Below, one piece after another: positions 6,086 to 49,438 of a stretch of DNA of 64,000 nucleotides (positions are counted from its first letter, which is position 1; each line of letters begins with the position of its first letter). A program made the position numbers and the translations under genes. Origin of the DNA: an uncultured Bacteroidales bacterium (GTDB taxonomy: Bacteria > Bacteroidota > Bacteroidia > Bacteroidales > UBA932); assembly GCA_900544815.1 (NCBI GenBank), contig UQWT01000003.1, positions 157 through 64,156 on the forward strand, in the 5' to 3' direction. Under the pieces are notes generated by a model. It saw nothing but the letters and a program-made list of their open reading frames with translations, made no database searches and was not told where the DNA came from.

Positions 6086-6144
6086 CTTTGGCATTGGCTA
6101 AGGCCAACTCTAACGCCAAAGCCAAAGCTGATAAACTATAAACC
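6086..6144. repeat. mosaic low-complexity intergenic repeat, copy A
   Basis: ggcattggctaaggccaac...cgccaaagccaaagc followed by ataaactataaacc. It uses the same GCCAAAGC hexamer-type and TATAAAC heptamer-type sub-motifs as copies B-F. It starts at the nucleotide after the stop codon at 6085. Confidence 0.6.
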
Positions 6145-6149
6145 AATAT

Positions 6150-6362
6150 ATGAGAGTTGTAAAAAGATACGAAAACGGTTTTAGCGCAAACCTTGCAAAA
6201 GGTATGTTAGAGAGCAACGGCATAGATGCCTGGATTCTCAATCCAAATCAGGCATTCTCTACCGGCTCCACTTTTGGTACACTTGGAATAGAATTAGCTG
6301 TTGCCGATGAAAACTATGATGAGGCCTGCAGACTTTTGGCAGCCTCTTCTAATGCAGAGTAA
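6150..6362 (+). CDS. small DUF2007-like (putative signal-transducing) protein
   Basis: 70 aa; the N-terminal pattern VVKRYENGFSANLAKGMLESNGIDAWILN resembles the DUF2007 family as I remember it. Confidence 0.45.
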   Translation: MRVVKRYENGFSANLAKGMLESNGIDAWILNPNQAFSTGSTFGTLGIELAVADENYDEACRLLAASSNAE

Positions 6363-6910
6363 AATTCCTCTCCAAAGTGGCTTGTTATAACTTCCCGCAG
6401 GAACTTATATACGGGAAGTCTCTCTTTCTTGCCCTTTTCAAATGCGCATTTGCATATATCCCATCTGTGAAGATTCAAAGCTGTATATCCGTTTGAAAGT
6501 TGAGACAGTCTTATTGGATATAGGGAACAGGATATTGGTTTTTTAAATCTGCTCCTCCCCGCACAATACGATTTTTCAATAGCGCAAAAACAGTTTTCAT
6601 TCTCATCAAAGCAGGTGTATGCACACTCCATCTTTCCAACAAGCGGCGTAACCAAATCTCCGTCTGTATCTATTTCGGCTACTCCGTTCTTCTCAATCAC
6701 AGCTATGCCACTTGATGTCATAAATGGTTTATAGAGAGGATAGTTATCCTCTAACTTTTCTATTTCGTCCTCCTCTACCGGTGCTCCACTGTCTCCTATA
6801 ATACAACAGCACCCCTTGCAGGTTTTATAATCACATGCAAAAAATTCTGTAAGGATGTCGGAAGAGACTAAATATCTATCTATTTCAAATATAAAACTTC
6901 TGTTTCTCAT
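6314..6910 (-). CDS. Cys-rich conserved hypothetical protein (DUF3109-like)
   Basis: FFACDYKTCKGCCC cysteine cluster plus further conserved Cys residues; about 198 aa. The family assignment is from memory only. Confidence 0.45.
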   Translation of the reverse strand: MRNRSFIFEIDRYLVSSDILTEFFACDYKTCKGCCCIIGDSGAPVEEDEIEKLEDNYPLYKPFMTSSGIAVIEKNGVAEIDTDGDLVTPLVGKMECAYTCFDENENCFCAIEKSYCAGRSRFKKPISCSLYPIRLSQLSNGYTALNLHRWDICKCAFEKGKKERLPVYKFLREVITSHFGEEFYSALEEAAKSLQASS

Positions 6911-6951
6911 GGATATCGTTATTTGTAGGGAATAGGATTGAAAAAAAGCCT

Positions 6952-12955: not shown

Positions 12956-14065
12956 ATGCACGAAGAGATAAAAAGGAAGATGAGGCTAATGGTAGATGAG
13001 GCGCGTGTCCCTCATGCCATACTGTTTACAGAAAACTCCGGCAACGGGGCTATAGATATAGCTCTTGATTTTGTAAAGTATCTCTTCTGTACAGACAAAA
13101 AAGGTGGTGAGCCGTGCGGTAAATGCAACAACTGCAGCATGGTAGACCATCTTGCACACCCAGATCTGCATTTTGCTTTTCCTACCAATGCCACAGGAGG
13201 ACAGAGTAAAAAAAAGAGTGTGGAGGAGTACTATCCTCAATGGAGAGAATTGGTTAAGTCCAACCGCTTTTTTGGAGAGAAAGAGTTGAATGACGCACTT
13301 GGAATAGACAACAAAAGTGGAACGATTAGCGTGTCCGATGCCGCTGAAATAATGCGCGAATTGAGTTTATCCTCTTATGGAGGTGGGGCAAAGGTCATGC
13401 TGGTAATGTTCCCGGAAAAGATGAACACAGAGGCCGCAAACAAACTCCTTAAATCTTTGGAAGAACCAAGGCCCGATACCTGTTTCATTCTTATCTCACA
13501 CTCACCGCAAAAGATTCTTAAGACAGTGCTGTCTCGGTGTCTGAGAATAGAGGTTCCCCCGATTGACGCGGCGGAGGTGACAGATATACTTGTAAACATA
13601 TTTAAAGCAGATAAGGAGGAGGCAGCTATAGCGGCAAAACGCTCGTGCGGAAGTGTTGGAAAGGCTTTGGAAATTCTTGGCGAGATGCACAATGAAGCGA
13701 CAGACGAGTGCATCTTTATGAACATAATGCGTTCCTGCTGCTCCAACAGTCTATACGATACGCTTTTAGAGGGTGAAAGATTAGCAGCGGCCGGCAGAGA
13801 GAATATTAAGGCGGAGCTCATTAACGGCTTGGAAATTACAAGGAAGCTGCTTATGTTAGACTTGGGATTAGATGAAATCTCTTTTGTGTCTGCAGCCGAA
13901 TCTGCCGAATTGACTAAATTTAAAGGAATATTAAATAAATCATCACTCTACAGGTTGCGTGATTATATTGAATCATCTATAAGATTGATAGAGAGGAATG
14001 TAAATGCAAAATTCGTAATAGCGGACTTGTGCAACAGAATCTATTTTACCTGCAGAGAGAAATGA
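12956..14065 (+). CDS. holB: DNA polymerase III delta-prime subunit-like ATPase
   Basis: HAILFTENSGNG, Cys cluster CGKCNNCSMVDHLAHPDLHF, GGAKVMLVMFPEKMNTEAANKLLKSLEEP and SRC motif (LSRCLRIEVPP). Confidence 0.8.
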   Translation: MHEEIKRKMRLMVDEARVPHAILFTENSGNGAIDIALDFVKYLFCTDKKGGEPCGKCNNCSMVDHLAHPDLHFAFPTNATGGQSKKKSVEEYYPQWRELVKSNRFFGEKELNDALGIDNKSGTISVSDAAEIMRELSLSSYGGGAKVMLVMFPEKMNTEAANKLLKSLEEPRPDTCFILISHSPQKILKTVLSRCLRIEVPPIDAAEVTDILVNIFKADKEEAAIAAKRSCGSVGKALEILGEMHNEATDECIFMNIMRSCCSNSLYDTLLEGERLAAAGRENIKAELINGLEITRKLLMLDLGLDEISFVSAAESAELTKFKGILNKSSLYRLRDYIESSIRLIERNVNAKFVIADLCNRIYFTCREK

Positions 14066-34478: not shown

Positions 34479-34593
34479 ATGGGACAACTCCTATTTTGTA
34501 ACATCTATTATGCATAATTCAAACTCTTAGTAAGCGCTAAAAAATAAGTTGGTAAAGATTTAGCAGTATTTTTGAGGATAGATGTCTTTTTGA

Positions 34594-34628
34594 AAAAGAT
34601 TATCAAGTTATTTTTTTAAGATTACTTA
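34594..34628 (+). repeat. 34-nt direct repeat, copy 2
   Basis: See 26045..26078. This copy ends 14 nt before the ATG at 34642. Confidence 0.7.
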
Positions 34629-35067: not shown

Positions 35068-35085
35068 ATAGCTTAGATGATGATT

Positions 35086-35115
35086 GCGGAGTGGTCTAAA
35101 TTTAGACCACTCCGC
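35086..35115 (+). terminator. perfect 30-nt palindrome downstream of the lipoprotein gene
   Basis: gcggagtggtctaaa|tttagaccactccgc, 19 nt after the stop at 35067. A strong hairpin, but no clear U-tract. Confidence 0.45.
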
Positions 35116-35125
35116 TAAATCAAAC

Positions 35126-35240
35126 GCTCCTTACTTTCTATACTCTCTTTTCCTTCTCTCCTCTCTATACACTAAAAAAGCCAATGCTAAAGCTAAAGCC
35201 AACGCCAACGCTATAAACAATACACTTTCAACTATTAATT
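35126..35240. repeat. mosaic low-complexity intergenic repeat, copy D
   Basis: ctttctatactctcttttccttctctcctctctatacact...gccaatgctaaagctaaagccaacgccaacgc then tataaacaatacac. This is the reverse-complement arrangement of copy C2. Confidence 0.7.
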
Positions 35241-35275
35241 TGCTATATTTGTTCGGTTTTAGAATTTTTGATAGG

Positions 35276-36172: not shown

Positions 36173-37837
36173 ATGAAAAAATTATCTTTCAGATTTCTAA
36201 GTCTCATGGTTTTGAGCTTAGCACTTGTTGCTTGTAGCAATCCATCAAAGATGGCCAAGTATGCAAGCATGGTTACAACCAATTGTGAACCTCAGGTTCT
36301 AGAGGCTGTTGCAGGTAAGATTGATGCAACATATTCAGTAACATTCCCCGGTAAATATTTCCTTAAAAAAGCTATTTTGGAGATCACCCCTGTAATGGTT
36401 TACCAAGGTGGTGAGGTTGCAGGTGAAACTTTCACTCTACAGGGTGAGAAAGTTCTTGAAAACTACACAACTGTTCCTTTTGAGCAGGGAGGTACATACA
36501 AGAGAAATGTATCCTTCAACTATGTTCCGGGAATGGAGAAAGCTGTTTTGGAGCTTAGAGCTACCGTTTACAACAAAACCAAAACCAAAAAATTTGTTTA
36601 TCCTGCTCCATTCAAGATTGCAGACGGAACAAATACAACCTATATGTTAGTTTGCACAGAGGGTACACCTACATTTGAGGCAGATAACTATCAGAAGATT
36701 ATCAAAGAGCAGAAAGAGAGCCAGATCCTTTATGTAATCAATCAGGCAGAGGTTAGAAACAGCCAGCTTACAAAGAAAGAGATCAAAGAGTTTGAGGAGT
36801 TCCTTAAATCTGTTGCAAACGATGAGAGAAGAACCCTTACCTCTAACGATATTATAGCTTACGCTTCACCAGACGGTAAAGAGACATTGAACGCTTCTTT
36901 GTCTGAGAAGAGAATGAATACTGCAACCAAAGCTTTCCAGAAGAAGATTGCCAAGAAAAACAAAACTGCTTTGGACGCAGATCTTAACGCATCTCATGTA
37001 AATGAGGACTGGGAAGGTTTCCAGGAGCTGGTTTCTGCATCTAATATAGAGGATAAAGAGCTTATTCTAAGAGTTCTTTCTATGTACTCAGATCCGGCTG
37101 TAAGAGAGCAGGAGATTAAGAATATGTCATCTGTATTCCAGATTTTGGCAGACAAGATCCTTCCTCAACTTAGAAGAGCAAGAATCATTGCCAATGTTGA
37201 TTACAAGAACTGGACAGATGATGAGATCAACGACATGATAGAGAACAATATAGATGAGTTAGACGAAGAGGCATTGCTTTATGCAGCTGCAACTCTTAAG
37301 AAGAATCCTGCTGACAAGATGAAACTATACGAGCAGGCAGCTAAGAAATACAATAGCAGCCGCGCATATAACAACATGGCAGTTCTTTATCTTATTCAGG
37401 GTAAAGCAGCAGATGCAAAGAGCGCTCTTGACAAGATGTCTGAGAAAACTCCAAGCTACTATAACAATATGGGTGTTGTAGCCATGCAACAGGAGAACTA
37501 CAAGGCTGCTGCAGATTATCTTTCAAAATCTAATCTGCCTGAGGCTAAATACAATCAGGCTGCTTTGGATATCTTAGACGGTAAATACCAGCAGGCAGTT
37601 GCTGCTCTTGCAGGTACAGGCGCCGAGAACGAGGCTCTTGCATACTTGCTAGTAGGCGAGAACGCAAAAGCAGGTGCTGCTATCCACTGCAAATGTCCTA
37701 AATCCAACTACCTTAGAGCTATTGTAGCTGCTCGTCAGGGCAACTCTGCAGCTGCTAAAGAGTTTATTGAGAAGGCTTCTAAAGATGAGAAGTTGGCAGC
37801 AAGGGCTAAGAATGATATTGAGTTTGCAAAACTATAA
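36173..37837 (+). CDS. lipoprotein with an OmpA-like segment and C-terminal TPR-like repeats
   Basis: MKKLSFRFLSLMVLSLALVACS lipobox. IAYASPDGKETLNASLSEKRMNTA resembles the OmpA-family peptidoglycan-binding motif. The C-terminal Ala/Tyr/Asn-rich helical repeats are TPR-like. Confidence 0.5.
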   Translation: MKKLSFRFLSLMVLSLALVACSNPSKMAKYASMVTTNCEPQVLEAVAGKIDATYSVTFPGKYFLKKAILEITPVMVYQGGEVAGETFTLQGEKVLENYTTVPFEQGGTYKRNVSFNYVPGMEKAVLELRATVYNKTKTKKFVYPAPFKIADGTNTTYMLVCTEGTPTFEADNYQKIIKEQKESQILYVINQAEVRNSQLTKKEIKEFEEFLKSVANDERRTLTSNDIIAYASPDGKETLNASLSEKRMNTATKAFQKKIAKKNKTALDADLNASHVNEDWEGFQELVSASNIEDKELILRVLSMYSDPAVREQEIKNMSSVFQILADKILPQLRRARIIANVDYKNWTDDEINDMIENNIDELDEEALLYAAATLKKNPADKMKLYEQAAKKYNSSRAYNNMAVLYLIQGKAADAKSALDKMSEKTPSYYNNMGVVAMQQENYKAAADYLSKSNLPEAKYNQAALDILDGKYQQAVAALAGTGAENEALAYLLVGENAKAGAAIHCKCPKSNYLRAIVAARQGNSAAAKEFIEKASKDEKLAARAKNDIEFAKL

Positions 37838-37922
37838 AACTGTCTAAAAAGTCAACTGCCACATTACGTTTGTTTTACAAGCTTTGCATTTGCACTTTTT
37901 ACACAATTTTAAAAGATTTTAT

Positions 37923-37954
37923 AGGGTGGTCTCACAGGCCACCCTTATTTTGTT
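37923..37954 (+). terminator. intrinsic terminator
   Basis: agggtgg-N9-ccaccct followed by tattttgtt, ~85 nt after the stop at 37837. Confidence 0.55.
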
Positions 37955-38003
37955 GCATTAACTACCAATAGTTTAATTAAATTTGCAACAAATCTGTAAC
38001 AGC

Positions 38004-39344
38004 ATGAGCAAATTATTATTATTTACCAATAGCTATCCTTTTGGCAATGGCGAGACATTTTTGGACGATGAGATTCCATATCTTGCCGGCAGGTTTGATG
38101 AGATCTATATACATCCCCTCTATATCCCGGCAGATGCCGCCACGCTCTCCATAAATAATAAAAATTGCTTTAAGTTTAAAAACATAAAGATTTGCGAAGC
38201 TCTTATACCATTTGATCATAAAGACAAGAAGGGACTTATAAGAAAGGGGCTTAAAATCATCCCTCCACAATGGCAGATTACAGAGTTTTTTTCAAAGGGT
38301 TGTTTCCTGCACGCAAAAAAATTAAGACTGTTTTTTAATTACTCGCTCATATACAACTCCATTATTGCAGACAAATCTCTTGTCAACAAGATTTTATGCG
38401 AACTAAACGAGTGCAGTGTTGCCTATTTCTACTGGGGAGACAAATCTGCCCTCCTTGTGCCGGAGTTAAAAAAACTAATAGCACACAAGTTTAAAAAGTC
38501 TGCAGACAAGATGCCGGCATTTGTTGTACGGTTTCATGGTTCGGACCTTTACGAGGAGGTAAAAGGATACCTACCATTTAGAAAGCATCTTCTCCCGCAA
38601 ATAGACTATGCCGTCACTATTTCAAAAAACGGAAAGGAATATATCAAAAACAGATATCCCGGCATTCAACCCAAGAATGTATGCACATACAGGTTAGGCA
38701 GTTGCGGTGACAATATTCCAAAAAGGATAGGACAGGAGTTTGAAGGCTCGCTGTTTCACATTATAAGCTGCTCCAACATTATTCCTCTAAAACGTGTAGG
38801 GCTTATTGCAGACGCCCTGAAGATTGTCCAAAACGACGTGGCTTTTTTAGAAAGGATGTGGGAAAACGGCTATGACGGAATAAAATGGACTCACATTGGA
38901 AACGGCCCGCTCTTAAATGAGATTAAAGAAAAAACAACGTTGGAGGAGGATGGAGAGGTAGTATATGACCTTAAGGGAGAGATGGAACATAACAATGTTT
39001 TAAACTATTACAGACAAGAAGATTGCGATCTTTTTGTTCAGGTAAGCAGTAGCGAAGGTGTTCCGGTTTCCATTATGGAGGCTCTGTCGTTTGGTATTCC
39101 GGTACTTGCCACAAATGTAGGCGGGGTTGGTGAGATTGTCTATAACAGAGATTCGGATCCTTTTGGGAAATTGGTCAACGCAGATATTACCACTACCAAT
39201 CTTGCAACAGAAATAGAGAACTTTATCCTTTTGCCTCCCGACAAATTACTCAACATGAAACGTGCTGCCCGCACCGAGTGGGAACTTGGCTGGGACAGCA
39301 CTAAGAACTATTCTGCCTTTGCAGATTTTTTAGTAACACTGTAA
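38004..39344 (+). CDS. glycosyltransferase (GT-B fold, GT4-like)
   Basis: C-terminal SSSEGVPVSIMEALSFGIPVLATNVGGVGEIV (E-x7-E-type motif). ATG at 38004 is preferred over the TTG at 37983. Confidence 0.7.
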   Translation: MSKLLLFTNSYPFGNGETFLDDEIPYLAGRFDEIYIHPLYIPADAATLSINNKNCFKFKNIKICEALIPFDHKDKKGLIRKGLKIIPPQWQITEFFSKGCFLHAKKLRLFFNYSLIYNSIIADKSLVNKILCELNECSVAYFYWGDKSALLVPELKKLIAHKFKKSADKMPAFVVRFHGSDLYEEVKGYLPFRKHLLPQIDYAVTISKNGKEYIKNRYPGIQPKNVCTYRLGSCGDNIPKRIGQEFEGSLFHIISCSNIIPLKRVGLIADALKIVQNDVAFLERMWENGYDGIKWTHIGNGPLLNEIKEKTTLEEDGEVVYDLKGEMEHNNVLNYYRQEDCDLFVQVSSSEGVPVSIMEALSFGIPVLATNVGGVGEIVYNRDSDPFGKLVNADITTTNLATEIENFILLPPDKLLNMKRAARTEWELGWDSTKNYSAFADFLVTL

Positions 39345-39363
39345 GTTTACCCTCGCACAGCTT

Positions 39364-41151
39364 TTAATCGAGTTTTAAGACAGCCATAAACGCACTCTGC
39401 GGCACCTCTACATTACCAACCTGACGCATACGGCGTTTACCTTTCTTCTGCTTCTCCAACAGCTTGCGCTTACGGGAAATATCACCTCCATAACATTTGG
39501 CAGTAACATCCTTTCTTACAGCCTTAACCGTTTCACGAGCAATAATCTTTGCGCCTATTGCCGCCTGAATCGCAATATCAAATTGCTGTCTTGGGATAAG
39601 CTCCTTTAGCTTTTCACACATTTTACGCCCAAAGTCATAGGCATGATCTCTATGTATAAGGCTCGACAATGCATCCACCTGCTCTCCATTAAGAAGTATA
39701 TCCAACTTTACAAGATCTGCCTGCCGGTAATCGATGATATGGTAATCAAATGAGGCATATCCCTTTGAGATAGACTTGAGTTTGTCATAAAAATCAAACA
39801 CTATCTCTGCAAGAGGAATATCGAAACTCAGTTCAACTCTATCTGCCGTAAGGAAATGCTGGTTAATAAGCGTACCTCTTTTATCCAAGCACAACTTCAT
39901 TACCGGCCCAAAGAAATCCGCACGTGAGATAATCTGCGCCCTAATATATGGCTCCTCTATATAGTCTATAAGAGTAGGTGCGGGAAGCCCGGATGGGTTG
40001 TGAACATCAACCACCTCTCCCTGTGTTGTATATACTTTGTATGAAACGTTTGGAACTGTGGTGATACAGTCCATGTTAAACTCCCTGTAAAGCCTCTCCT
40101 GAACAATTTCAAGATGAAGAAGCCCAAGGAATCCACACCTGAAACCAAACCCAAGGGCAAGCGAACTCTCGGGGTCAAATACAAGTGATGCATCGTTAAG
40201 CTGCAATTTCTCCAAAGATGATCTTAAATCCTCATATTGGTCTGTTTCAACCGGATAAACACCTGCAAAGACCATAGGTTTCACCTCCTCAAAACCTGCA
40301 ATTGCATTACTGCAAGGGTTGTCTATTCTTGTAATGGTATCACCAACCTTAACCTCAACAGCACTCTTTATACCACTTATTATATAACCCACATCCCCTG
40401 TCTTAATCTCATCTTTGGGACACAACTTCATCCTTAAAACACCAACTTCATCTGCAACATACTCCTTTCCGGTATTAAAGAATTTAACCTTTTCTCCCTT
40501 TTTAATAGTTCCGTTCTCAACCTTAAAATATGCTATAACACCTCTGAATGAATTGAATACAGAGTCAAATATCAATGCCTGGAGAGGGGCGTTGGGGTCT
40601 CCCTGCGGAGCAGGAACCCTCTCAACAATAGCATCCAAAATTTCCGGCACACCTATACCTGTCTTGCCGCTGGCAAGGAGGATCTCTTCGCTTTTACATC
40701 CCAAAAGGTCTACTATCTGATCCTTTACTACCTCCACCATGGCACTGTCCATATCTATCTTGTTAATGACGGGTATAATCTCCAGATCGTGGTTAAGTGC
40801 AAGGTACAGATTGGATATCGTCTGTGCCTGAATTCCCTGTGTTGCATCTACAACAAGCAGAGCGCCTTCGCAAGAGGCAATAGCCCTTGATACCTCATAC
40901 GAGAAATCCACATGACCCGGAGTGTCAATGAGATTAAGAATATATTTCTCACCTCCACGAACATACTCCATCTGAATTGCATGGCTCTTTATGGTAATAC
41001 CTTTCTCCTTCTCCAAATCCATTGAATCGAGAACCTGATTCTCCATCTCCCTGTCCGACAGTGTGTGCGTGGCCTCTAATAATCTGTCGGCCAAAGTACT
41101 CTTTCCATGGTCTATATGTGCTATAATGCAAAAGTTCCTTATATTCTTCAT
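39364..41151 (-). CDS. lepA: elongation factor 4
   Basis: [32 protein letters not shown] and NKID, with the LepA-specific C-terminal region; 595 aa. Confidence 0.95.
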
Positions 41152-41176
41152 CTACATTTAATCTAAAAGCGGTAAT

Positions 41177-41192
41177 TATGTTTGCAAAGATA
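41177..41192. promoter_or_regulatory. back-to-back candidate -7 boxes for divergent lepA and transketolase genes
   Basis: tatgtttgcaaagata contains TATGTTTG on the + strand and TATCTTTG on the - strand. The minus-strand box lies 34-41 nt upstream of the lepA ATG. Confidence 0.3.
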
Positions 41193-41321
41193 ATTCAATT
41201 TTGTATTATCTTCGCACTGCGGCTTTGGCATCTTGCTTTTATGATACTGTTTACAACTTAAACAGCATTCAAGCCTCCTGAATTAGACACTAAATAACAC
41301 TTAAAACATAGAAATTCTTAC

Positions 41322-42170
41322 ATGTATAACATTGAACAATTAAATGATATAGCCTCTCAGGTAAGGAGAGACATTATCAGAATGGTCACAGATGCCCAGT
41401 CTGGACATCCGGGCGGCAGCCTCAGCAGTGCCGATGTAATGACCGCGCTCTTCTTTAAGGTATTAAAGCACAACCCTGCAAACTGGAGCAGAACAGGTAG
41501 AGGAAACGACATGTTCTTCCTCTCTGCCGGGCATATCTCCCCTGTATTTTACAGTGTATTGGCAAGGAGCGGTTATTTTCCTGTTAAGGAGCTTGCCACA
41601 TTCAGAAAATTTGGCACAAGGCTACAGGGCCATCCATCTACAGATCATAATCTTCCTGGAGTATATGAAGCTGCCGGTTCGCTTGGACAGGGATTGTCTG
41701 TTGCAATAGGAGCCGCTTTGAGCAAGAAGATAGACAACGATCCAAATTATGTTTACGTTTTACTTGGAGACGGAGAGCAGGAGGAGGGTCAGGTATGGGA
41801 AGCTGCCATGTTTGGCGCACACCATAAAGTTGACAATCTTATAGCTATCACAGACTGGAACCACCAACAGATAGACGGCAATATAGATGATGTTGCAGGA
41901 GTTGGCGAGTTAGACAAAAAATGGGAAGCTTTCGGCTGGAGGGTGATTATTACAGATGGCCATAATATGGAGAAGATTATCTCTGCTCTTGAAGAGGCCA
42001 AAAGAACCGCAAAGGAGAACAACTCCCCTGTAATGGTGCTGTTAAAGACAGAGATGGGAGAGGGTGTAGACTTTATGCGCGGCACCAATGAGTGGCACGG
42101 CAAGGCCCCAAAACCAGAGCAGGCAGAGAAGGCTCTTGCACAACTAAAAGAGACACTTGGAGATTACTAA
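41322..42170 (+). CDS. transketolase, N-terminal (TPP-binding) subunit
   Basis: GHPGGSLSSADVMTALFF, LGDGEQEEGQVWEA and HGKAP; 282 aa, split-type transketolase. Confidence 0.9.
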   Translation: MYNIEQLNDIASQVRRDIIRMVTDAQSGHPGGSLSSADVMTALFFKVLKHNPANWSRTGRGNDMFFLSAGHISPVFYSVLARSGYFPVKELATFRKFGTRLQGHPSTDHNLPGVYEAAGSLGQGLSVAIGAALSKKIDNDPNYVYVLLGDGEQEEGQVWEAAMFGAHHKVDNLIAITDWNHQQIDGNIDDVAGVGELDKKWEAFGWRVIITDGHNMEKIISALEEAKRTAKENNSPVMVLLKTEMGEGVDFMRGTNEWHGKAPKPEQAEKALAQLKETLGDY

Positions 42171-42208
42171 AATCCAAGTGACAGTAATAACCAGATAACA
42201 TTAAATTT

Positions 42209-43171
42209 ATGATAAAAGAAAATTTCATAAACAGAGGCAGCAAAGATACAAGAAGCGGTTTTGGAGCCGGGCTGCTTGAAGCCGGAAAGCAGAATGAGAA
42301 TATTGTTGCCCTATGTGCAGACCTTGTAGGCTCTGTAAAGATGGGAGATTTTGCAAAAGAGTTTCCAAACAGATTTTTCCAGGCAGGCATAGCCGAGGCC
42401 AACATGATTGGCGTTGGTGCAGGCCTTGCCTTAAGCGGTAAGGTTGCTTTTGTTGGTACATTCGCCGCATTTGCAACAGGAAGGGTTTACGACCAGATAA
42501 GGCAGGCTGTCTGCTATTCTAACACAAACGTTAAGATTGCAGCTTCTCACGCGGGAATTACACTTGGAGAGGATGGCGCAACCCACCAGATATTGGAGGA
42601 TATAGGACTTATGAGGATGTTGCCTAATATGGTTGTCATTAACCCATGTGACTACAACCAGACTAAAGCAGCTACAATAGCGGCAGCAGCACACAACGGA
42701 CCTGTTTATTTGAGATTCGGGCGTCCATCAGTTCCTAATTTTACCCCATGCGACCAGAAATTTGAAATAGGAAAAGCACTAAAACTAATTGATGGATGCG
42801 ATGTTACAATCTTTGCAACCGGGCATCTTGTATGGGAGGCGATACAGGCTGCAGACGCACTTGAATCTGCCGGCATAAAGGCAGAAGTCATAGATATCCA
42901 CACCATTAAGCCTTTAGATGTTGCTGCTGTCTTGGAATCTGTGGCAAAGACAAAAGCTGCAGTTGTGGCAGAGGAGCATTTTATTGCCGGCGGTCTTGGA
43001 GAGGCTATCTGCGGGACTCTATGTGCAAACGGAAAGGCTGTACCTGTTGAATTTGTTGCAATAGACGACAAGTTTGGGCAGAGCGGCACACCATCTCAGC
43101 TGATGAAGGCATACGGATTGGATGCAGAGCATATTGTTGAAGCTGCAAAGAACGTTATAACAAGAAAATAA
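42209..43171 (+). CDS. transketolase, C-terminal (pyrimidine-binding) subunit
   Basis: FFQAGIAEANMIGVGAGLA, GATHQ..EDIGLMR and GPVYLRFGR; 320 aa. Confidence 0.9.
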   Translation: MIKENFINRGSKDTRSGFGAGLLEAGKQNENIVALCADLVGSVKMGDFAKEFPNRFFQAGIAEANMIGVGAGLALSGKVAFVGTFAAFATGRVYDQIRQAVCYSNTNVKIAASHAGITLGEDGATHQILEDIGLMRMLPNMVVINPCDYNQTKAATIAAAAHNGPVYLRFGRPSVPNFTPCDQKFEIGKALKLIDGCDVTIFATGHLVWEAIQAADALESAGIKAEVIDIHTIKPLDVAAVLESVAKTKAAVVAEEHFIAGGLGEAICGTLCANGKAVPVEFVAIDDKFGQSGTPSQLMKAYGLDAEHIVEAAKNVITRK

Positions 43172-43177
43172 TCTATC

Positions 43178-43726
43178 ATGATTGAAGATTCCGAAATTCT
43201 TGAACTATACAACAAAGACTCAAAGGACGAGGCATTCAATCATATTGTACGAAAATATTCAGAACGATTGTATTGGCACATCAGGGAGCTTTGCGGCTCC
43301 CATGATGATGCCGATGACCTTTTGCAGACAACCTTCATAAAGGTATGGAATGCACTTCCCACCTTTAGAAATGACTGTAAGCTCTACACATGGATATGGC
43401 GTATAGCCACCAATGAAACCCTTACATTTTTAAGGAGAAAAAAGATTATCTCCTTTCTCTCTTTACAGAATTATAGCACATACCTGCAGGAGAAGATGGA
43501 GGATGAGCCATACTTTGACGGAGACAAGTTACAACTTCTTTTGAACAAGGCCATAATAGCCCTTCCTCCACGGCAGCGAGCAGTTTTCAGTCTAAGATAT
43601 TTTCAAGAGATGAAGTACGAAGAGATATCGGAGATAATGGGAATATCTGTAGGTGCGCTAAAAGCCTCATACCATCATGCCTATAACAAGATAAAGACCA
43701 TTTTACAGGATGAGTGGGACAATTGA
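43178..43726 (+). CDS. ECF-type RNA polymerase sigma factor
   Basis: Region 2 (DDADDLLQTTFIKVW, YTWIWRIATNE) and region 4 (RQRAVFSLRYFQEMKYEEISEIMGISVGALKASYHHA). Confidence 0.85.
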   Translation: MIEDSEILELYNKDSKDEAFNHIVRKYSERLYWHIRELCGSHDDADDLLQTTFIKVWNALPTFRNDCKLYTWIWRIATNETLTFLRRKKIISFLSLQNYSTYLQEKMEDEPYFDGDKLQLLLNKAIIALPPRQRAVFSLRYFQEMKYEEISEIMGISVGALKASYHHAYNKIKTILQDEWDN

Positions 43727-43801
43727 GCTTATTAATTGAGCAATGCAATTAATCTTTTGAGATAAACGATAGTCTAATTTACAGAAGAATATTTAGAGGA
43801 T

Positions 43802-44194
43802 ATGAACAAGAATGACAATATTATGGATTCCCTTAACAGATGCCCTTTCAAATTGCCGGCAGGATATACCAACAAAGTTGAGGAAAGTGTCCGCAAAAAG
43901 ATAGAAAAAGAGGAGACAGGCAATATGGCTCTGCTCAAGCCTAACTTTGCACTCCTTCTCACATTCGTCGCTATCCTTGGAATAGGTTACGGCATAATGA
44001 ATTGGGCTACCCCAAAAGATTATACGGGAGTTGCAAATGAAACGGAGAGCACCGCAGTTGCCGCTAATGAAGATTATGGCAATGAACTGTTTGATACTAT
44101 TCCCAATAATCGTTTGAGCTCTGAGGAGGAGGCTATAGAGGATTATCTTATAGAGACCGGCTTTACTGTAACAGCTTTAGCATCCATCGAGTAA
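43802..44194 (+). CDS. putative anti-sigma factor (single-pass membrane protein)
   Basis: Sits immediately downstream of the ECF sigma gene. Short cytoplasmic N-terminus, one TM helix (ALLLTFVAILGIGYGIM) and an acidic C-terminus. Position-based call. Confidence 0.4.
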   Translation: MNKNDNIMDSLNRCPFKLPAGYTNKVEESVRKKIEKEETGNMALLKPNFALLLTFVAILGIGYGIMNWATPKDYTGVANETESTAVAANEDYGNELFDTIPNNRLSSEEEAIEDYLIETGFTVTALASIE

Positions 44195-44220
44195 CCAAAA
44201 ACAATATACAATAGACATAT

Positions 44221-44751
44221 ATGAGATACATTATTTCATTAGCAATCAGCTTAATATTAATGTCGGGCAGTCTCTTTGCTCAGAATAGAGAGGATAACGA
44301 GCCTTGTTGCGAACAGTCCGAACAGACAACAGACAACAAGCAAAAAAAGGAGGAGCAGAAGAGGAATCATCAAGAGATGAGAGAGATGATCCAGGCAAAA
44401 AAGATAGCCTTCTTTACAGAATATTTGGATCTTACGCCAAGTGAGGCAGAAAAATTCTGGCCGCTGTACAACAGTTTTTGGAAACAGAGGATGGATGCTC
44501 ACAAAAACGCAAAGATTGCCCTCAAGAACCTTAATAAAGCGGTAAACTCCACAGAAGAGACTCCTGATTCTACAATAAAATCTCTTATGGAGAAATATAT
44601 ATCATTAAGTAAAAAGGAGTTTGAGATAATGGATGATATGTTTGGCAAGATGAATAGCATATTACCTGTAAAGAAGGCCGCCAAACTGATTAGTGCCGAG
44701 GAAAAATTCAGAGAGCAGCTCATAAGACAGCTTAAGGAGAAAAAGGATTAG
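44221..44751 (+). CDS. secreted helical protein associated with the ECF sigma module (Spy/CpxP-like composition)
   Basis: Signal peptide; K/E/Q-rich helices; LTPSEAEKFWPLYNSFWKQR motif. It is the third gene of the sigma/anti-sigma unit. Confidence 0.35.
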   Translation: MRYIISLAISLILMSGSLFAQNREDNEPCCEQSEQTTDNKQKKEEQKRNHQEMREMIQAKKIAFFTEYLDLTPSEAEKFWPLYNSFWKQRMDAHKNAKIALKNLNKAVNSTEETPDSTIKSLMEKYISLSKKEFEIMDDMFGKMNSILPVKKAAKLISAEEKFREQLIRQLKEKKD

Positions 44752-44756
44752 ATCTT

Positions 44757-45521
44757 CTACAAGTAAAAGTTGAACATAAGTCTTCTAAAAGGCTCGTTGT
44801 CTGCACCGCAGATAACGAGTTTTTCTTTTTCCACGCAAACTGCAGAAGTCTTTACCCCCTTTTCAAACTCCATAAGCAGACGTTTGACCGGCTTATGCGC
44901 AACAGTAAAGACTTCGCACATACGTATAAGGTTCAATGTTTCTATCCCATGCTTCCCCACAAACTCCGTTTTCCTTATAAACTCCCGCCCCTCCGTTACA
45001 GGGAGAATAATTGCCAACCTACCGCCCGTTTTGAGAAGTCTTAAAGTATTGTTGAGCAGATCCATCTGCGAAAGGGAATCTGTATGTTTTGCATTTACCA
45101 TCCTGGTACCCGAGCTTTTAAGCGAATTTATAAAATATGGCGGATTAGTAAAGATGAGATCATATTTTTTGTCGGGAAGCGGGACATAATCTTGTAAGGC
45201 TACATGCTGCAAACCAACCCACGGCCATGGGGAGGCGGATACATTTTCCAAGGCATCTGCATACGCATTATCCTCTATCTCTATACCTGTAATAGTGCAA
45301 CCGTGGCTACAGACGCCACCCGTTGCCACGCAGTCATGCTGTTCATCTAACCGTTGGGCGCACATAAGTGCAATAACCCCGGTTCCGGTTCCTATATCGA
45401 GGAAATTGGCGTCTGAAGGCAGAATATTCATCCAGGAACCAAGCAGCACTCCGTCTGTATTCACCTTCATTGCAGTTCGCTGCTGTGTTATGCCAAATCT
45501 CTTGAATCTAAAGCCTGCCAT
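44757..45521 (-). CDS. tRNA (adenine-N6)-methyltransferase (TrmN6/YfiC-like)
   Basis: [43 protein letters not shown] and the IFTNPPYF catalytic motif. Confidence 0.8.
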
Positions 45522-46173
45522 CCTTCATCTCAAATATTCTGTCACTCATCTGCGCCAGCTCGCGTTCGTGAGTAACTATTACAATGGTCTGCCTGAGCTT
45601 GTCCCTTAATTTAAAGAAAAGATCGTGCAGCTCCGCTTTATTTTTGCTGTCTAAGTTTCCCGACGGTTCATCGGCAAACAGCACTGCCGGGCTGTTTATC
45701 AACGCCCTTGCAATGGCAACCCTCTGCTGCTCTCCACCGCTGAGCTCCTTTGGCTTATGTTCAAGTCTTTCTCCCAATCCCAAATCGGATAACAGCATTA
45801 CAGCCCTTTCTCTTATATCAGCCTCCTTTTTCTTCTCTTTGTTATTGCAATTGTATATCCGGGCCGGCAACATTACATTTTCCAAGGCAGTAAATTCCGG
45901 CAAGAGGTGATGAAACTGGAATACAAAACCTATTTTGCTGTTTCTGAACAATGCCAGACCATCTCCCTTTAATTTTGATATATCAGTTCCGTCTATTATC
46001 ACCTCCCCACTTGTAGGTGGAAGGAGCGAACCCATAATCTGCAAAAGAGTAGACTTCCCGGCACCGCTGGCACCTACAATAGAGACAACCTCCCCTTTGT
46101 TGATTTTAAGATTTATATTCTTAAGGACATGCAGCTGTCCGAATGATTTATTTATATTATTGCAGATTATCAC
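45508..46173 (-). CDS. ABC transporter ATP-binding protein (LolD-like)
   Basis: Walker [10 protein letters not shown], signature [15 protein letters not shown] and Walker B LFADEP; 221 aa. Confidence 0.85.
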
Positions 46174-46200
46174 TTTGCACTTTGTTTATTTCGCAAAGGT

Positions 46201-46240
46201 AAACAAAAAGAGGGGGACCGTCAAACCGATCCCCCCTCCT
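46201..46240 (-). terminator. intrinsic terminator downstream of the EF-G paralogue
   Basis: On the minus strand, gagggggg...ccccctc G/C-rich stem followed by tttttgttt. Confidence 0.5.
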
Positions 46241-46304
46241 CTTGGTTAGATTATAGTATCAAATGATTAAAATATCACAATATAAAAGTTCATAGTAAAA
46301 TATA

Positions 46305-46329
46305 ACCAAAGCCAAAGTTTAATTATAGT
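46305..46329. repeat. short fragment of the mosaic repeat family, copy F
   Basis: aaccaaagccaaagtttaattatag abuts the stop codon at 46331. Confidence 0.4.
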
Positions 46330-46330
46330 A

Positions 46331-48484
46331 CTACTCCTCCTTCTCACTTGCTTCGTAAGCCTTAAGCAGTTTGTCTTGAACATCTGCAGGCACCTGTTGG
46401 TAATCTGCAAAACTCATTGTAAATGTTGCTCTTCCGCTTGTAAGCGAACTTAGAGTTGTAGAATATTTATACAATTCTGCCAATGGAACTCTTGCCCTAA
46501 GCACCTCGAATCCCTTCTCGCTGTTCATTCCCTCTATGATAGCTCTGCGGTTTTGAAGGTCAGACATAACATCTCCCATACAGTCTGACGGTACAAGGAT
46601 CTCAACATTGTAGATAGGTTCCATGATCTTAGGACCGGCCTTCTTGAATGCCTCTTTAAATGCATTTCTGGCAGCAAGTTTAAATGCCATTTCGTTTGAA
46701 TCTACGGGGTGCATCTTACCATCATATACATATACTCTAATATCACGTGCATATGATCCTGTAAGAGGTCCCTCATTCATCTTCTCCATAACACCTTTAA
46801 GGATTGCAGGCATAAATCTGGCATCAATTGCACCGCCTACTATACAGTTATAGTATTCAAGTTTTCCGCCCCACTCTAGAGGGTACTCCTCTTTTCCTTT
46901 GATATTAAGGACATAATCCTGTCCGTCTGCTTTAAACTTGTTGTTCTGAGGTGCTCCCTCTGTGTATGGCTCAATGATAATATGAACCTCGCCAAACTGA
47001 CCTGCTCCGCCGGACTGTTTCTTGTGTCTGTAATCCGCTCTTGCAACCTTTGTGATGGTCTCACGATATGGGATTCTTGGAGCAAACAGATCTATATCCA
47101 ATTTATGTATATTGTTTATCTGCCACTTAAGAATATTTATATGATGCTCTCCCTGTCCGCTCAAGATAGTCTGTTTAAGTTCTTTTGAATACTCAACAAT
47201 AATGGTAGGATCTTCTGCACTCGCCCTGTTAAGGATCTCGCCAAGTTTTTCGTCATCCTTCTCCTCTTTAGCCTTTATAGCCGTGCGGAATTTAGGAGCA
47301 GGGAACTGTGTAGGGGCAAACTCCCAGTCGCAACCGACAGCATCTAATGTCTGGTTTGTCTTAACACTCTTTAGTTTTACGGTACATGCTATATCGCCTG
47401 CACAAACCTCGGAGATCTTCTCTCTCTTCTTACCGGCAGATGCGTATATAATTGAGATACGCTCCTTGTTGCCGTTGACAGGATTTACAAGGTCCATTCC
47501 CTCTGTAAGTTTGCCTGACATAACCTTAAAATATGTTACTTCACCAAGATGCTGTTCCATTCCTGTCTTGTAAACAAACAACGAAGTAGGACCGTTTGAA
47601 TCCACTTTCACCTCTGTGCCGTCTACAAGTTTGTTAGGACAAAGATCCGGGCTTGGGCATGTATTGATTGTAAACTCCATCAGTCTCTTTACACCAATAT
47701 CTTTCTTTGCAGAGAGACAGAATACAGGCATTATATCCCCCTTTCTCATTCCTATCTTAAGGCCTGCCCTAATCTCATCCTCTGTAAGTTTTCCTTTGTC
47801 AAAGAATGCCTCCATAAGGGTCTCGTCATTCTCTGCAGACATCTCTACCAACTGCTGGTGCAACTCTGCAGCCTCATCTGCATACTCAGCAGGAATATCT
47901 GCCTCCAATCGTGTACCATTCTCATCTGTAAATGTGTATAACTTCATTTTAAGCACATCCACAAACTGGTTGAAGTTTGTACCGGCATTAACAGGGAACT
48001 GAACAAGAACTATCTTGTTGCCAAATGACTGCCTAAGAGAATCTATTGTTGCATGCCAATCCGCCTTCTCCGAATCCAACTGGTTTACACCAATTATAAG
48101 CGGCTTGTTGTGTTTCTGTGCATGCCTTGCAAATATCTCTGTTCCAACCTCAACACCCTGAGTTGCATTAACTATGAGGACTCCGTTCTCAGCTACGGAA
48201 AATGCAGAATAGACGCCCCCTACAAAATCATCTGAGCCCGGGGTATCTATAATATTGAACTTTGTATCCTTAAATTCTGTATATAATAGAGTAGAAAAAA
48301 TAGAGCGCTGATATATCTGCTCAATCTCTGTATTATCACTTATTGTGTTCTTTGCCTCAACAGAACCTCTTCTGTCTATGATTTTTCCTTCAAACATCAT
48401 TGTTTCGGCAAGAGTGGTTTTCCCGGATTTAGAGCTTCCCAAGAGGACTATATTCCTCACATTTTGGGTGTTGTAAGTTTTCAT
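46331..48484 (-). CDS. elongation factor G paralogue (EF-G2-like translational GTPase)
   Basis: G1 GSSKSGKTT, DTPGSDDF and NQLD, with EF-G domains II-V collinear; 717 aa. The P-loop context differs from canonical AHIDAGKTT. Confidence 0.8.
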   Translation of the reverse strand: MKTYNTQNVRNIVLLGSSKSGKTTLAETMMFEGKIIDRRGSVEAKNTISDNTEIEQIYQRSIFSTLLYTEFKDTKFNIIDTPGSDDFVGGVYSAFSVAENGVLIVNATQGVEVGTEIFARHAQKHNKPLIIGVNQLDSEKADWHATIDSLRQSFGNKIVLVQFPVNAGTNFNQFVDVLKMKLYTFTDENGTRLEADIPAEYADEAAELHQQLVEMSAENDETLMEAFFDKGKLTEDEIRAGLKIGMRKGDIMPVFCLSAKKDIGVKRLMEFTINTCPSPDLCPNKLVDGTEVKVDSNGPTSLFVYKTGMEQHLGEVTYFKVMSGKLTEGMDLVNPVNGNKERISIIYASAGKKREKISEVCAGDIACTVKLKSVKTNQTLDAVGCDWEFAPTQFPAPKFRTAIKAKEEKDDEKLGEILNRASAEDPTIIVEYSKELKQTILSGQGEHHINILKWQINNIHKLDIDLFAPRIPYRETITKVARADYRHKKQSGGAGQFGEVHIIIEPYTEGAPQNNKFKADGQDYVLNIKGKEEYPLEWGGKLEYYNCIVGGAIDARFMPAILKGVMEKMNEGPLTGSYARDIRVYVYDGKMHPVDSNEMAFKLAARNAFKEAFKKAGPKIMEPIYNVEILVPSDCMGDVMSDLQNRRAIIEGMNSEKGFEVLRARVPLAELYKYSTTLSSLTSGRATFTMSFADYQQVPADVQDKLLKAYEASEKEE

Positions 48485-48651
48485 ATCTTCTTTACTGTTA
48501 TTTAGTTTATATACTGTAATATTATTTTAATTTCTGCCATATTCTACCTCTGTTTTCAACAAACGGGCAGATTTTCAAAATTAAACAAAAATATTTGGAA
48601 AATCAATATTTTTACCAGTATAAATTGCGTTATTGTGAAAAAATTTACAAA

Positions 48652-49287
48652 CTAAAACAGCCTAGGCTCTAAATCGCTCTTTTTTAACAAAGTAAACGAT
48701 GCTCTGTGATACGGGCTTATTCCAAACTCGGCTATGGCTTTTCTATGGGCTTTGGTAGGATAACCTTTGTTCTTTTCCCAGTTGTAGTTTGGGTACTCCT
48801 TAGCCAACCTTGTCATATACTCATCTCTATGGGTTTTGGCTAATACAGAAGCTGCCGCAATGGAGGTATATTTGGAATCACCCTTAACTATACAATGATA
48901 TGGTATTCTTCTTCCCGACAAAGAACAATATTCTCTAAACTTGTTGCCATCTACAATTATATGCTCAGGCTCAATTGTAAGTTTATCTAAAGCACGCTGC
49001 ATTGCGGTTATGGATGCCTGCAGGATATTTATCTTATCTATCTCCTGCGCATCAACAAAACAGACAGCCCACGCAAGTGCATTCTCCTCTATGTAGGGTC
49101 TAAGCAACTCTCTATTATGTTCGGACAATTGTTTTGAATCATTCAAAAGGGGGTGATAAAACCCTTGTGGCAATATTACAGCAGCCGCAACTACAGGGCC
49201 TGCAAGACACCCTCTCCCGGCCTCATCACATCCCGCCTCCGTTTTGTTAGGAAGCATATAATCAAGTAAACTTGTAACCTGTTTCAT
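48652..49287 (-). CDS. rnhB: ribonuclease HII
   Basis: [21 protein letters not shown] and DSK...ASI.AK motifs. ATG at 49287 is preferred over the TTG at 49326. Confidence 0.9.
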
Positions 49288-49340
49288 AACCGCAAATTTA
49301 CCTTTTTTACAGAAAGTAAAGAACAACTAATTAGAAACAG

Positions 49341-49438
49341 CTTCTCTCTCCGTGCCTTAATTAGCTTTGGCTTTAGCTTTAGCCTTCTCTACCCTCTCTA
49401 CTTTCTCTACGCTTTCAACTTATAATTAAGGCTAACGC
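49341..49438. repeat. mosaic low-complexity intergenic repeat, copy E (MITE-like, ~10-bp terminal inverted repeats)
   Basis: gccttaatta-gctttggctttagctttagcc-ttctctaccctctctactttctctac-...-taattaaggc. It fills the rnhB/XRE intergenic gap and abuts the XRE stop codon. Confidence 0.7.

Follow-up and report, generated by a model that had tools for sequence, protein, structure and literature searches.

A MITE/BIME-like family of small non-coding intergenic repeats in uncultured human-gut Bacteroidales

The window, i.e., the whole 64,000-nt stretch of DNA analysed here, carries six sites (A to F) at which short-period repeats lie beside housekeeping genes (kdsB, rnhB, pyrG and others). A preliminary description had listed these sites as sharing a set of sequence blocks, and all six were present where it had placed them, with a correction for site E given below. 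Hexamer tracts and 9-nt arrays were found in the window only at the listed intergenic sites, and Tandem Repeats Finder returned arrays with periods of 6/12, 7 and 9/18/27 nt at sites B, C, D and F. The block TCTCTAC/TCTATAC had been taken for a heptamer, but its period is 9 nt, with GTAGAGARR or GTATAGARR as the unit on the purine strand. The sites are mosaic, as had been proposed, although the blocks should not be seen as independent bricks: they are organised into two recurrent palindromic unit types and a conserved terminal module of about 45 nt. The type I unit is an imperfect palindrome of about 165 nt with heptamer-rich arms and occurs at site B and in the first half of site C. In the type II unit, inverted hexamer arms enclose a 9-nt purine-rich array; this unit occurs in the second half of site C and at site F, as well as at site D, where the hexamer tract is on one side only. 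Both types have in common the terminal module (CTATACAC..TCAACT..TTAATTAAGGCYAACGC) and variable (GCKTTR)n tracts, and the units range in size from 60 to 240 nt.

Table 1. Repeat features in the window
Feature	Position	Strand	Description
Site A	6086-6149	+	Two hexamer arms (6086-6098 and 6115-6127) forming a short hairpin, followed by GATAAAC TATAAAC
Site B, left hexamer tract	26126-26171	+	(GCTTTR), about 7.5 units, period 6/12
Site B, type I core	26172-26329	+	Near-palindromic, heptamer-rich; arms 26172-26226 and 26264-26318
Site C, leading hexamers	29720-29735	+	TAG stop codon, then GCTTTGGCGTTGGC
Site C1, type I core	29736-29848	+	Orientation opposite to B; arms 29751-29791 and 29801-29841
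Site C2, type II unit	29851-29964	+	Hexamer arm GCGTTGGCTTTAGCTTTGGC, 9-nt array (29879-29954), closing arm AAAGCTAAAGC
Site D, type II unit	35130-35243	-	In plus-strand order: 9-nt array (35130-35173), A-run (35174-35179), hexamers (35180-35211), terminal module (35212-35243)
Site E, marginal member	46251-46328	-	Lineage-specific 72-nt block between TTATAG direct repeats (46251-46256 and 46323-46328; CTATAA on the gene strand)
Site F, type II unit	49354-49437	-	Hexamers (49364-49385), 9-nt units (49386-49412), terminal module
Module Y remnant, outside the family	49327-49353	-	Right end of a different palindromic repeat of about 190 nt

Site A, with 13-nt arms that are 92% complementary, extends from the TAA stop codon (6083-6085) to the ATG of a 70-aa ORF at 6150; it is the only site to which the earlier statement that several copies fill the entire gap applies (6086-6149). 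The inverted repeats described as bounding B and F were both recovered. At site B these are 55-nt arms with 75% complementarity, and the right end carries the terminal module TCTATACACTCTAAACTCTCAACTATAAACTTTATTAAGGCCAACGC; at site F they form a perfect 10-nt inverted repeat, GCCTTAATTA (49354-49363) and TAATTAAGGC (49423-49432), matching at 10/10 positions. Repeats of this kind interrupt assemblies, as seen from an N gap within site B in L002. At site C the first hexamer unit opens with the G of the stop codon, and the C1 core (41-nt arms, 78% complementary; 78% identical to B over 117 nt) is embedded in a hexamer tract, with direct-orientation hexamers on either side. The C2 unit has 14-nt arms, 93% complementary, around an array of about eight GTAKAGARR units. 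Site D is flanked on one side by a terminator-like hairpin (35088-35117) and on the other by the kdsB -7 box TATATTTG (35244-35251), whereas site F begins right after the stop codon of an HTH gene (49438-49440), next to a remnant of module Y, which is complete at the site F position in L190. The arm search found no terminal inverted repeats at sites D and E. Site E lies between the stop codon of an EF-G-like gene (46331-46333) and the terminator hairpin of that gene. It contains two hexamer units and the TAATTAAA word. The lineage-specific block spans approximately 46251-46328 instead of 46305-46329, BLAST gave no significant match between it and the remaining sites, and its membership is marginal.

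Every detected interval was intergenic, and the ORFs within the units are only read-through artefacts, in line with their supposed non-coding nature. Copies occur about once every 6-10 kb and most often start at the upstream gene's stop codon or a few bases from it: about 17 of the 30 intervals abut or overlap this codon. The abutments reported at 6085, 29722, 46331 and 49438 were correct. In the gaps between tandem genes, the element is closer to the stop codon than to the next start codon.

The repeats stand out statistically in the window. We found 18 matches to GCKTTRGCKTTRGC with at most one mismatch, where 0.34 were expected and none of 100 shuffles reached 18, and 13 matches to GTAKAGARRGTAKAGA with at most two mismatches, where 0.49 were expected. 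All 18 of the former fall inside sites A, B, C, D and F, and all 13 of the latter inside sites B, C, D and F. The 10-mer boundary word proposed earlier is not enriched (7 matches with at most one mismatch versus 8.2 expected), yet its three exact copies all lie in sites C and F. An nhmmer search gave E = 1e-46 for site B and E values of 1e-35 to 1e-43 for eight other full-length copies, which brings the full-length type I copies to nine, together with many partial ones, at a density of about one per 3-10 kb. The eight relatives come from sister species and from metagenome contigs of the human gut. Their identity is 84-90% with B and 76-93% among themselves over about 150-200 nt in BLAST and nhmmer alignments, and their flanks are unrelated at all loci except the ortholog in the sister species L188. 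In addition, a 48-nt terminal module in the L098 ortholog of site F matches the right end of B at 94% identity.

The blocks are AT-rich and of short period, and site B has a gap in one public assembly, which could suggest that the sites are unrelated low-complexity tracts or assembly artefacts resembling each other by chance. This is almost certainly wrong and is refuted by the alignments: the similarity extends over a non-periodic core with unrelated flanks, the enrichment of both motifs is far beyond expectation, and the family is missing from the equally AT-rich intergenic DNA of the clade at 80% RNase HII identity. Moreover, identical sequences were found again in many independent assemblies from ENA, NCBI, Logan and JGI. 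The family therefore remains intact under proper alignment and is distinct from AT-rich low complexity. On the sequence evidence, the six sites are true copies and fragments of one previously undescribed small non-coding intergenic repeat family.

Hexamer tracts, 9-mer tracts and profile matches occurred in the window species and its sister lineages, a clade whose RNase HII proteins are at least 91% identical. The family was missing from 59 kb of DNA, syntenic or related, in relatives whose RNase HII is 80% and 68% identical, as well as from 63 kb of unrelated loci and from phage and plasmid collections. Judged by these comparisons, it is specific to one genus-level clade of uncultured human-gut Bacteroidales.

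RNA folding of each copy predicted hairpins at sites A, B and C (z from -2.0 to -3.5; site A, -17.1 kcal/mol and z = -2.9; site B, z = -3.5), whereas sites D, E and F folded no better than shuffled sequence. The long hairpins predicted for type I units and a central sequence of about 110 nt that is well conserved among the copies could be expected of structured small-RNA genes or riboregulators that are incidentally repetitive. However, the window gave no covariance-model match to Rfam 15, either at gathering thresholds or at E <= 0.1, covariation is essentially nil, copies occur in both orientations relative to the neighbouring genes, and many of them are truncated or rearranged, which makes such a role very improbable.

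The same hairpins, the dense, extragenic and mosaic copies and the strong bias to begin at the upstream stop codon are also features of domesticated REP/BIME-like elements, i.e., host-acting palindromes spread by a RAYT-type single-strand transposase, which would either stabilise or terminate mRNAs as hairpins directly behind stop codons or be bound by nucleoid proteins. In addition, the left (GCTTTR) and right (YAACGC) arms show a systematic T/G asymmetry that is conserved across the copies and resembles the conserved mismatches of REP hairpins. Nevertheless, we consider domestication of this kind unlikely. The 20-40-nt REP with a GTAG or CGTC head is absent, only one of 27 predicted pairs is compensatory and the covariation term is positive, sites D, E and F lack significant hairpins, and no RAYT was seen in the window or the fetched loci. 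Classical G+C-rich terminators adjoin sites D and E, and therefore the elements are no substitute for terminators. The content of orthologous sites is not conserved, which argues against a site-specific function.

Comparison of strains revealed changes by whole repeat units. Site D has two length alleles among strains that differ by exactly 18 + 6 nt, site C2 of strain L175 contains one additional 9-nt unit (+9 nt), the copies in L125 and L135 differ by 14 nt (2 x 7), and between those in L122 and L130 there are differences of 6 and of 7 nt. Such in-phase gain and loss of whole 6-, 7- and 9-nt units is a signature of replication slippage. At site B of strain L175, most of the left hexamer tract has been swapped for a different module although the strains are about 99% identical; the replacement of whole end modules between near-identical strains points to recombination or gene conversion between copies.

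Insertion polymorphism was present between lineages at orthologous sites, where cores are present or absent, often within or beside a hexamer tract. The ortholog of site B is present in L188, but the C1 core, flanked on both sides by GGCGTTGGC in the window, is missing from the orthologous site of that species. The position of site D has a different content in L188 and L190, with an additional unit of about 150 nt in the latter, and orthologs of site F in four sister lineages comprise 33, 50, 111 and 322 nt of differing content. The site E block is missing in L098 and L186 and is present and longer in L183; CTATAA flanks it in the filled lineages and occurs as a single copy in the empty one. 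This single clean duplication could equally be a target-site duplication or a product of deletion between short direct repeats. No common target-site duplication was visible around copies other than E and C1, and the differences at E, C1 and the L190 site D may reflect insertion or deletion, in either direction. Orthologs are 86% identical, paralogs 76-93% and flanks 88-90%; since these values are similar, recent transposition is not demonstrated, and an old burst followed by local turnover would match them equally well.

The segregation of length alleles within the species and the location of two sites next to promoters raise the question of whether the repeats are hypervariable cis-regulatory cassettes, in which changes in unit number and module swaps would adjust the expression of neighbouring genes, or make it phase-variable, by altering promoter-upstream sequence or spacing, as in contingency-locus repeats or promoter-bearing MITEs of the BrickBuilt type. 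BrickBuilt elements have bidirectional promoter activity in Porphyromonas gingivalis (PMC4596501). Site D lies between the terminator hairpin and the kdsB -7 box, and the rnhB -7 box TAAATTTG adjoins site F, as it does the orthologs of this site, so that the element must contain the -33 region. However, the variable arrays are upstream of -33 and thus outside the -33/-7 interval, the majority of copies are at gene 3' ends instead of promoters, and the need for phase variation of housekeeping genes such as kdsB, rnhB and pyrG is not obvious. A regulatory purpose is therefore quite improbable.

Several known repeats resemble the family in part. The BOX elements of Streptococcus pneumoniae (Firmicutes) consist of A-B(n)-C modules of 59, 45 and 50 nt. 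They are likewise modular, intergenic and hairpin-forming, contain a short internal module whose copy number varies and are not known to have a transposase of their own, but their sequence is unrelated and they have no short-period (6-9 nt) arrays. Cyanobacterial STRR sequences are short tandem heptamer repeats of intergenic DNA. TAACTGA repeats occur in Beggiatoaceae, Cyanobacteria and some Bacteroidetes (MacGregor 2015, PMC4679880). Both share with our family tandem 7-nt units, strictly intergenic locations and abundance in particular lineages only. They are, however, direct arrays of one heptamer mostly immediately upstream of start codons, whereas here arrays of unrelated unit sequence, mostly right after stop codons, form part of larger palindromic elements that also have conserved terminal modules and non-periodic cores.

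The BrickBuilt MITE of P. gingivalis has one 23-nt minisatellite, repeated from 1 to about 23 times, between a leader and a tail, and about 19 copies per genome located 49-591 nt from genes (Klein et al. 2015, PMC4596501). The likeness extends to the Bacteroidales host, the strictly intergenic position, the limited host range, the many partial copies and the modular structure, in which a tandem array lies within conserved flanking subunits with small inverted ends and the repeat number varies by copy and strain. The description of BrickBuilt sets our family apart by its three periods (6, 7 and 9 nt) and near-palindromic units, and our family is also much denser and often abuts stop codons. REP/BIME elements of enterobacteria and pseudomonads are high-copy extragenic palindromes that combine with short motifs into mosaics, mostly past gene 3' ends, and form imperfect hairpins with conserved mismatches and genus- or species-specific sequence (Nunvar et al. 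2010, PMC2817692; Di Nocera et al. 2013, PMC3733652). Our family is such a high-copy extragenic mosaic of motifs, although its arms are tandem hexamers and heptamers, unlike the classical REP unit, and its internal arrays are length-polymorphic. CRISPR arrays, which have direct repeats of 24-48 nt and unique spacers of similar length, can be rejected, as they were initially, since the units here are 6-9 nt long and run head to tail without spacers. Integron attC sites (RYYYAAC/GTTRRRY ends) do not fit either: the ends are GTTGGCC or GTTAGCC, unlike GTTRRRY, the neighbours are housekeeping genes instead of cassettes, and no integrase was found.

The elements are small (below about 500 bp) and non-coding, have inverted repeats (A, B, C1 and F) and are dispersed with unrelated flanks. 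"MITE-like" is a fair label because B and F have inverted-repeat bounds and insertion polymorphism exists. The family thus falls into a familiar class, MITE/BIME-like, rather than being a novel type of system. With a probability of about 60%, we explain the sites as copies, partial copies and juxtapositions of one small non-coding, non-autonomous family of this class that has been diversified by slippage and recombination. Its copies would have spread via transposition catalysed in trans, as in MITEs, or via a REP/RAYT-like single-strand hairpin mechanism, and later slippage and inter-copy recombination would have produced the mosaics. About 300 kb of DNA from the clade showed no transposase or RAYT gene and no longer element with these ends. 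Most copies would be tolerated passengers of 3'-UTR-like space, with selection probably holding them away from downstream promoters; as a side effect, some would necessarily provide mRNA 3' hairpins or upstream promoter sequence.

Three events coincide with the hexamer tracts: a core lies within a tract, with hexamers on both sides (site C in comparison with L188), the extra unit of L190 lies beside a tract (site D), and the swap of the end module in L175 took place exactly at a tract (site B). This could mean that (GCKTTR)n tracts are both the landing pad and the exchange point of a dedicated mechanism, which we offer as a speculative and rather doubtful idea. If true, with a clade-specific enzyme that targets or extends the tracts, the result would be a mobile-element system directed at microsatellites, and it would generate strain-level variation at gene boundaries. 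The repeat family itself changes quickly between strains, in the gaps between housekeeping genes.

The six intergenic repeat sites A to F lie in a housekeeping chromosomal stretch of the genome of an uncultured gut Bacteroidales lineage (G+C 40.8%), the genes of which include miaA, kdsB, lepA, transketolase, secG, lptE, rnhB, an EF-G paralogue and an RHS toxin island. When the sequence was re-read, all six matched the preliminary description of mosaic sites assembled from short repeat blocks, and the blocks were not found in any other intergenic region of the window. With a density of 6 sites per 64 kb, the family accounts for ~1.3% of the window and for about one eighth of the DNA between its genes. 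The double hexamer GCKTTRGCKTTRGC (≤1 mismatch) gave 18 matches against 0.34 expected, all in A, B, C, D and F, and the double nonamer GTAKAGARRGTAKAGA (≤2 mismatches) gave 13 against 0.49 expected, all in B, C, D and F; no enrichment in the window was seen for the 10-nt boundary word by itself with one mismatch allowed. Tandem Repeats Finder reported periods of 6/12, 7 and 9/18/27 at the block-bearing sites. Since these and the nonamer results show 9-nt periods in the third block, it is a 9-nt repeat and not a heptamer run, as had been proposed.

Low complexity alone does not explain the resemblance between the sites. BLAST and MAFFT revealed full-length relatives of element B at loci with unrelated flanks, and an nhmmer profile recovered nine full-length copies at E ≤ 1e-35 together with many partial ones. 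Over aligned positions element B was 84-90% identical to the other full-length copies, which were 76-93% identical among themselves, and the conserved portion includes ~110 nt of non-periodic sequence (AGTCAGTTAATTAGTTTATAGATTTAAAGATATTAGTTTTTTACTTTAAACTTTACTGCTATTAACTTTAAAACTGTCTATACACTATAAACTTTCAACT). Iterative BLAST did not spill into coding sequence or chance loci. The family therefore survives alignment as a true repeat family. The data establish that these are non-coding, palindromic, modular repeats restricted to one genus; the original observation is real and its reading was largely right.

The elements have GGCCTTAATTAAGTT-type ends and form two recurring unit types. Type I (B and C1, the first part of site C) is a near-palindrome of ~165 nt, with a left arm rich in GTTTATA/GTTTAAA and a right arm rich in their complements; its left end is (GCTTTR)n-GCTAATTAAG and its right end CTTWATTAAGGC-(CAACGC)n, the left and right hexamers differing systematically by T/G across copies. 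The arms of element B (55 nt) are 75% complementary, and its RNA fold has a z-score of -3.5. In type II (C2 and F), inverted hexamer arms enclose a purine-rich array of 9-nt units, GTAGAGARR/GTATAGARR, and a terminal module, CTATACAC..TCAACT..TTAATTAAGGCYAACGC, often follows; site D is of this type with a hexamer tract on a single side. Site A consists of a minimal hairpin, its two arms made of hexamers, and two heptamers, and a third small module, GCTTTAGCTAATTTAATTTTGATAGCCAACGC, is present at some ends. The grouping of all six sites into one family held for A-D and F; site E has in common with the others only two hexamer units and the word TAATTAAA, and gave no significant BLAST match to them. 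We also observed a short motif, TTGTCGGGAAG(C) (window form cttcccgacaaaatt), directly adjoining hexamer tracts at window positions 26090-26125 and in the flanks of two metagenome loci (L126 and L129), with one further occurrence in the window at 56880-56900.

Homologues of RNase HII fall into identity tiers of 99%, 91-94%, 78-80% and 68% or less. The family is carried by the 91-94% sister lineages (L098/L188, a Hadza-gut MAG labelled uncultured Bacteroidales, and L183, L186 and L190), and no hexamer tracts, nonamer tracts or profile matches were present in 59 kb from the syntenic 80% lineages (L177, L180) and a 68% relative (L182). In the gap of L177 orthologous to site E (13000-13090) there are repeats of similar flavour, ACACTATAAACTCTTTAAAAG..GGCGTTAATTAAAC..CTTTAAAAC, below all detection thresholds used; they may be very remotely related to the family, or low-complexity sequence may have converged. 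A degenerate terminal pattern scanned over metagenome contigs yielded ~20 real matches in human-gut assemblies, amid chance matches from soil. In tblastn searches, the only links of the metagenome contigs to the window were an RHS gene (89-90% identity) and a short fragment of MiaA, with no housekeeping genes in common; these contigs probably belong to sister species. Hexamer sites reach one per ~2.7 kb in the metagenome loci, which were chosen for carrying a copy. The boundary word GCGTTRGCCTTAATWAAG gave 38 matches over the genome collection, a chance-level number, only that in L098 being real; the word is too variable for a census of the family. In viral contigs the 16-nt boundary word had 72 chance matches, none in family context, and two core patterns had none. 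Element B gave no BLAST match to plasmid and phage records, and Rfam returned nothing at gathering or E-value thresholds.

Comparison of orthologous and related loci showed two kinds of change. Whole repeat units are gained or lost: within the species, two alleles of site D are set apart by exactly two 9-nt units plus one hexamer (the long allele in three of 11 assemblies) and site C of strain L175 has gained one 9-nt unit, and paired metagenome loci differ by two 7-nt units (L125 vs L135) or by one 6-nt and one 7-nt unit (L122 vs L130). Larger segments also come and go. In L175, again within the species, the left end of site B is replaced, from inside the hexamer tract, by the small hairpin module; the C1 core is missing in L188, and in the window a hexamer tract surrounds it, GGCGTTGGC standing on either side; and site D of L190 has an extra ~150-nt unit beside its hexamer tract. 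Site E is absent in L098 and L186 and present in the window and L183, with a CTATAA duplication on its flanks. The content of site F measures 33 nt in L186, 50 nt in L098, 111 nt in the window, ~300 nt in L190 and 322 nt in L183, with differing modules. Element B is orthologous in the window and L188, and its insertion therefore predates their split; the two copies are 86% identical, their flanks 88-90% and paralogues 76-93%. The data establish two routes of turnover among the copies: slippage, in three different short arrays, and exchange or indels, both boundaries of which lie in hexamer tracts.

All family intervals are intergenic. Of the 30, ~17 overlap the stop codon of the gene upstream or start only a few bases away from it; where two genes stand in tandem, the element in the gap is nearer to the stop than to the next start. 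A hexamer unit begins with the G of a TAG stop at sites C and F, as it does in L098 and L183 at the site orthologous to F. L186 keeps the orthologous stop codon at the same place without hexamers there, and thus the stop is ancestral and not element-derived. G+C-rich classical terminator hairpins adjoin sites D and E. Directly after the elements lie TATATTTG (before kdsB) and TAAATTTG (before rnhB), which we take, from the TAnnTTTG consensus, to be putative -7 boxes of the Bacteroidetes type. Within the hexamer tract, TAGCTTTG fits the same motif, and was rejected as a promoter because a 12-nt period places -33 and -7 at a wrong distance; TTGGC..TTGG was dismissed as a mimic of a sigma-54 promoter because the -12 element does not fit. 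The first 64 residues of the called KdsB (..YFLYSLFLLSSLYTKKANAKAKANANAINN..) are read-through of element D, and the true start is the ATG at 35276 (249 aa). The longer form is the representative of a 90% protein cluster and occurs on dozens of contigs in public collections.

Coordinates of element B, the called kdsB gene and other repeats near the family sites
Feature	Window	Other loci	Description
Element B	26126-26329		type I unit
kdsB, called version	35084-36025		upstream start TTG at 35084, runs through element D; 313 aa
Module Y	30068-30268; remnant 49327-49353	L188 4598-4805; L190 14930-15130	~190-nt repeat, not the family
Module X	29969-30112	L183 9751-9895	~145 nt; left flank and left end of module Y
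Second, unrelated MITE-like repeat	26040-26085; 34530-34625	L002 15990-16175	inverted ends AAAAATAAGTTGGTAAAGATT, AAAGATTACCAAGTTATTTTTTT

Other repeats are found nearby. Module Y, bounded by the inverted repeats TTAGAAACAGTT..CCTGTCAATCAGC and GTTGATTGACGC..AACTGTTTACTAA, gives on folding a long hairpin of very high stability (-68 kcal/mol, z = -7.5) and lies just upstream of a DUF6443-RHS-TseH toxin gene (30289-34059). Its orientation is identical in all three assemblies of the window species and opposite at the orthologous place in L188 (90.9% identity as the reverse complement vs 74.7% in the same sense); an invertible switch could account for this, as could independent insertion of a palindromic element. 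Module X recurs at a different locus, between an HTH gene and rnhB, in the sister species L183-L185 (94.5% identity); it holds the start of a putative short ORF (MNDLSISGK...), which in L183 continues into hexamer-derived AKAKAN codons. The second MITE-like repeat has a 160-bp copy upstream of the transketolase gene in L002, absent from the window at ~41290, and its copies bound the 8.5-kb RHS toxin island (~26090-34610). Strains L001 and L003 lack this island entirely; in them the 142-aa ORF and kdsB come directly after the sigma-54 activator gene. When gene order was compared between L188 (12563-14756) and the window (37837-54942), a glycosyltransferase gene directly preceded the 5-FTHF cyclo-ligase/ParA/peptidase S46 block in L188/L189 (the Hadza MAG lineage), as also in L190/L191; compared with the window species, the lepA-rnhB segment is thus inverted or transposed.

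The inverted ends, dispersed copies and filled and empty sites make spread by transposition in trans the most economical origin of the family. It is not proven, since no partner gene came to light, the duplications do not agree with one another and there is no sign of very recent copies; only housekeeping genes, and no transposase, were found among the neighbouring genes. A host role like that of REP/BIME repeats is possible, but it is weakened by the lack of covariation in the alignment, by copies that do not fold and by unconserved content at orthologous sites. RNAalifold on eight type I copies found one compensatory pair and a positive covariation term, and hence no evidence for a selected RNA structure. 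Integron attC sites were rejected because of mismatched ends and neighbouring genes of housekeeping type, phased DNA curvature because the 6-, 7- and 9-nt periods are out of helical phase, and telomere-like end addition because nothing speaks in its favour.

A literature search found no description of the family. By description, BrickBuilt of P. gingivalis comes closest: this MITE encloses a 23-nt minisatellite, includes partial copies and has promoter activity (PMC4596501). Both are Bacteroidales MITE-like elements with internal tandem arrays, whereas those of our family come in three different short periods. Further analogues are BIMEs, pneumococcal BOX elements and the heptamer arrays found between genes in cyanobacteria and Beggiatoaceae (PMC4679880), and the three-period architecture appears in none of these systems as described. 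The family is a novel representative of an already known repeat class, and the second Bacteroidales MITE-like element with internal tandem arrays after BrickBuilt. In practice, it leads gene callers to wrong start codons, as for KdsB in public protein collections, and breaks short-read assemblies (one public MAG is gapped inside site B); as highly polymorphic markers, its copies could tell apart strains that are ~99% identical. The hexamer tracts apparently act as insertion and exchange points, and this is the sole feature that could raise the interest of the family: it would represent a new biological mechanism only if an enzyme proves to lie behind the association of hexamer tracts with insertion or exchange.
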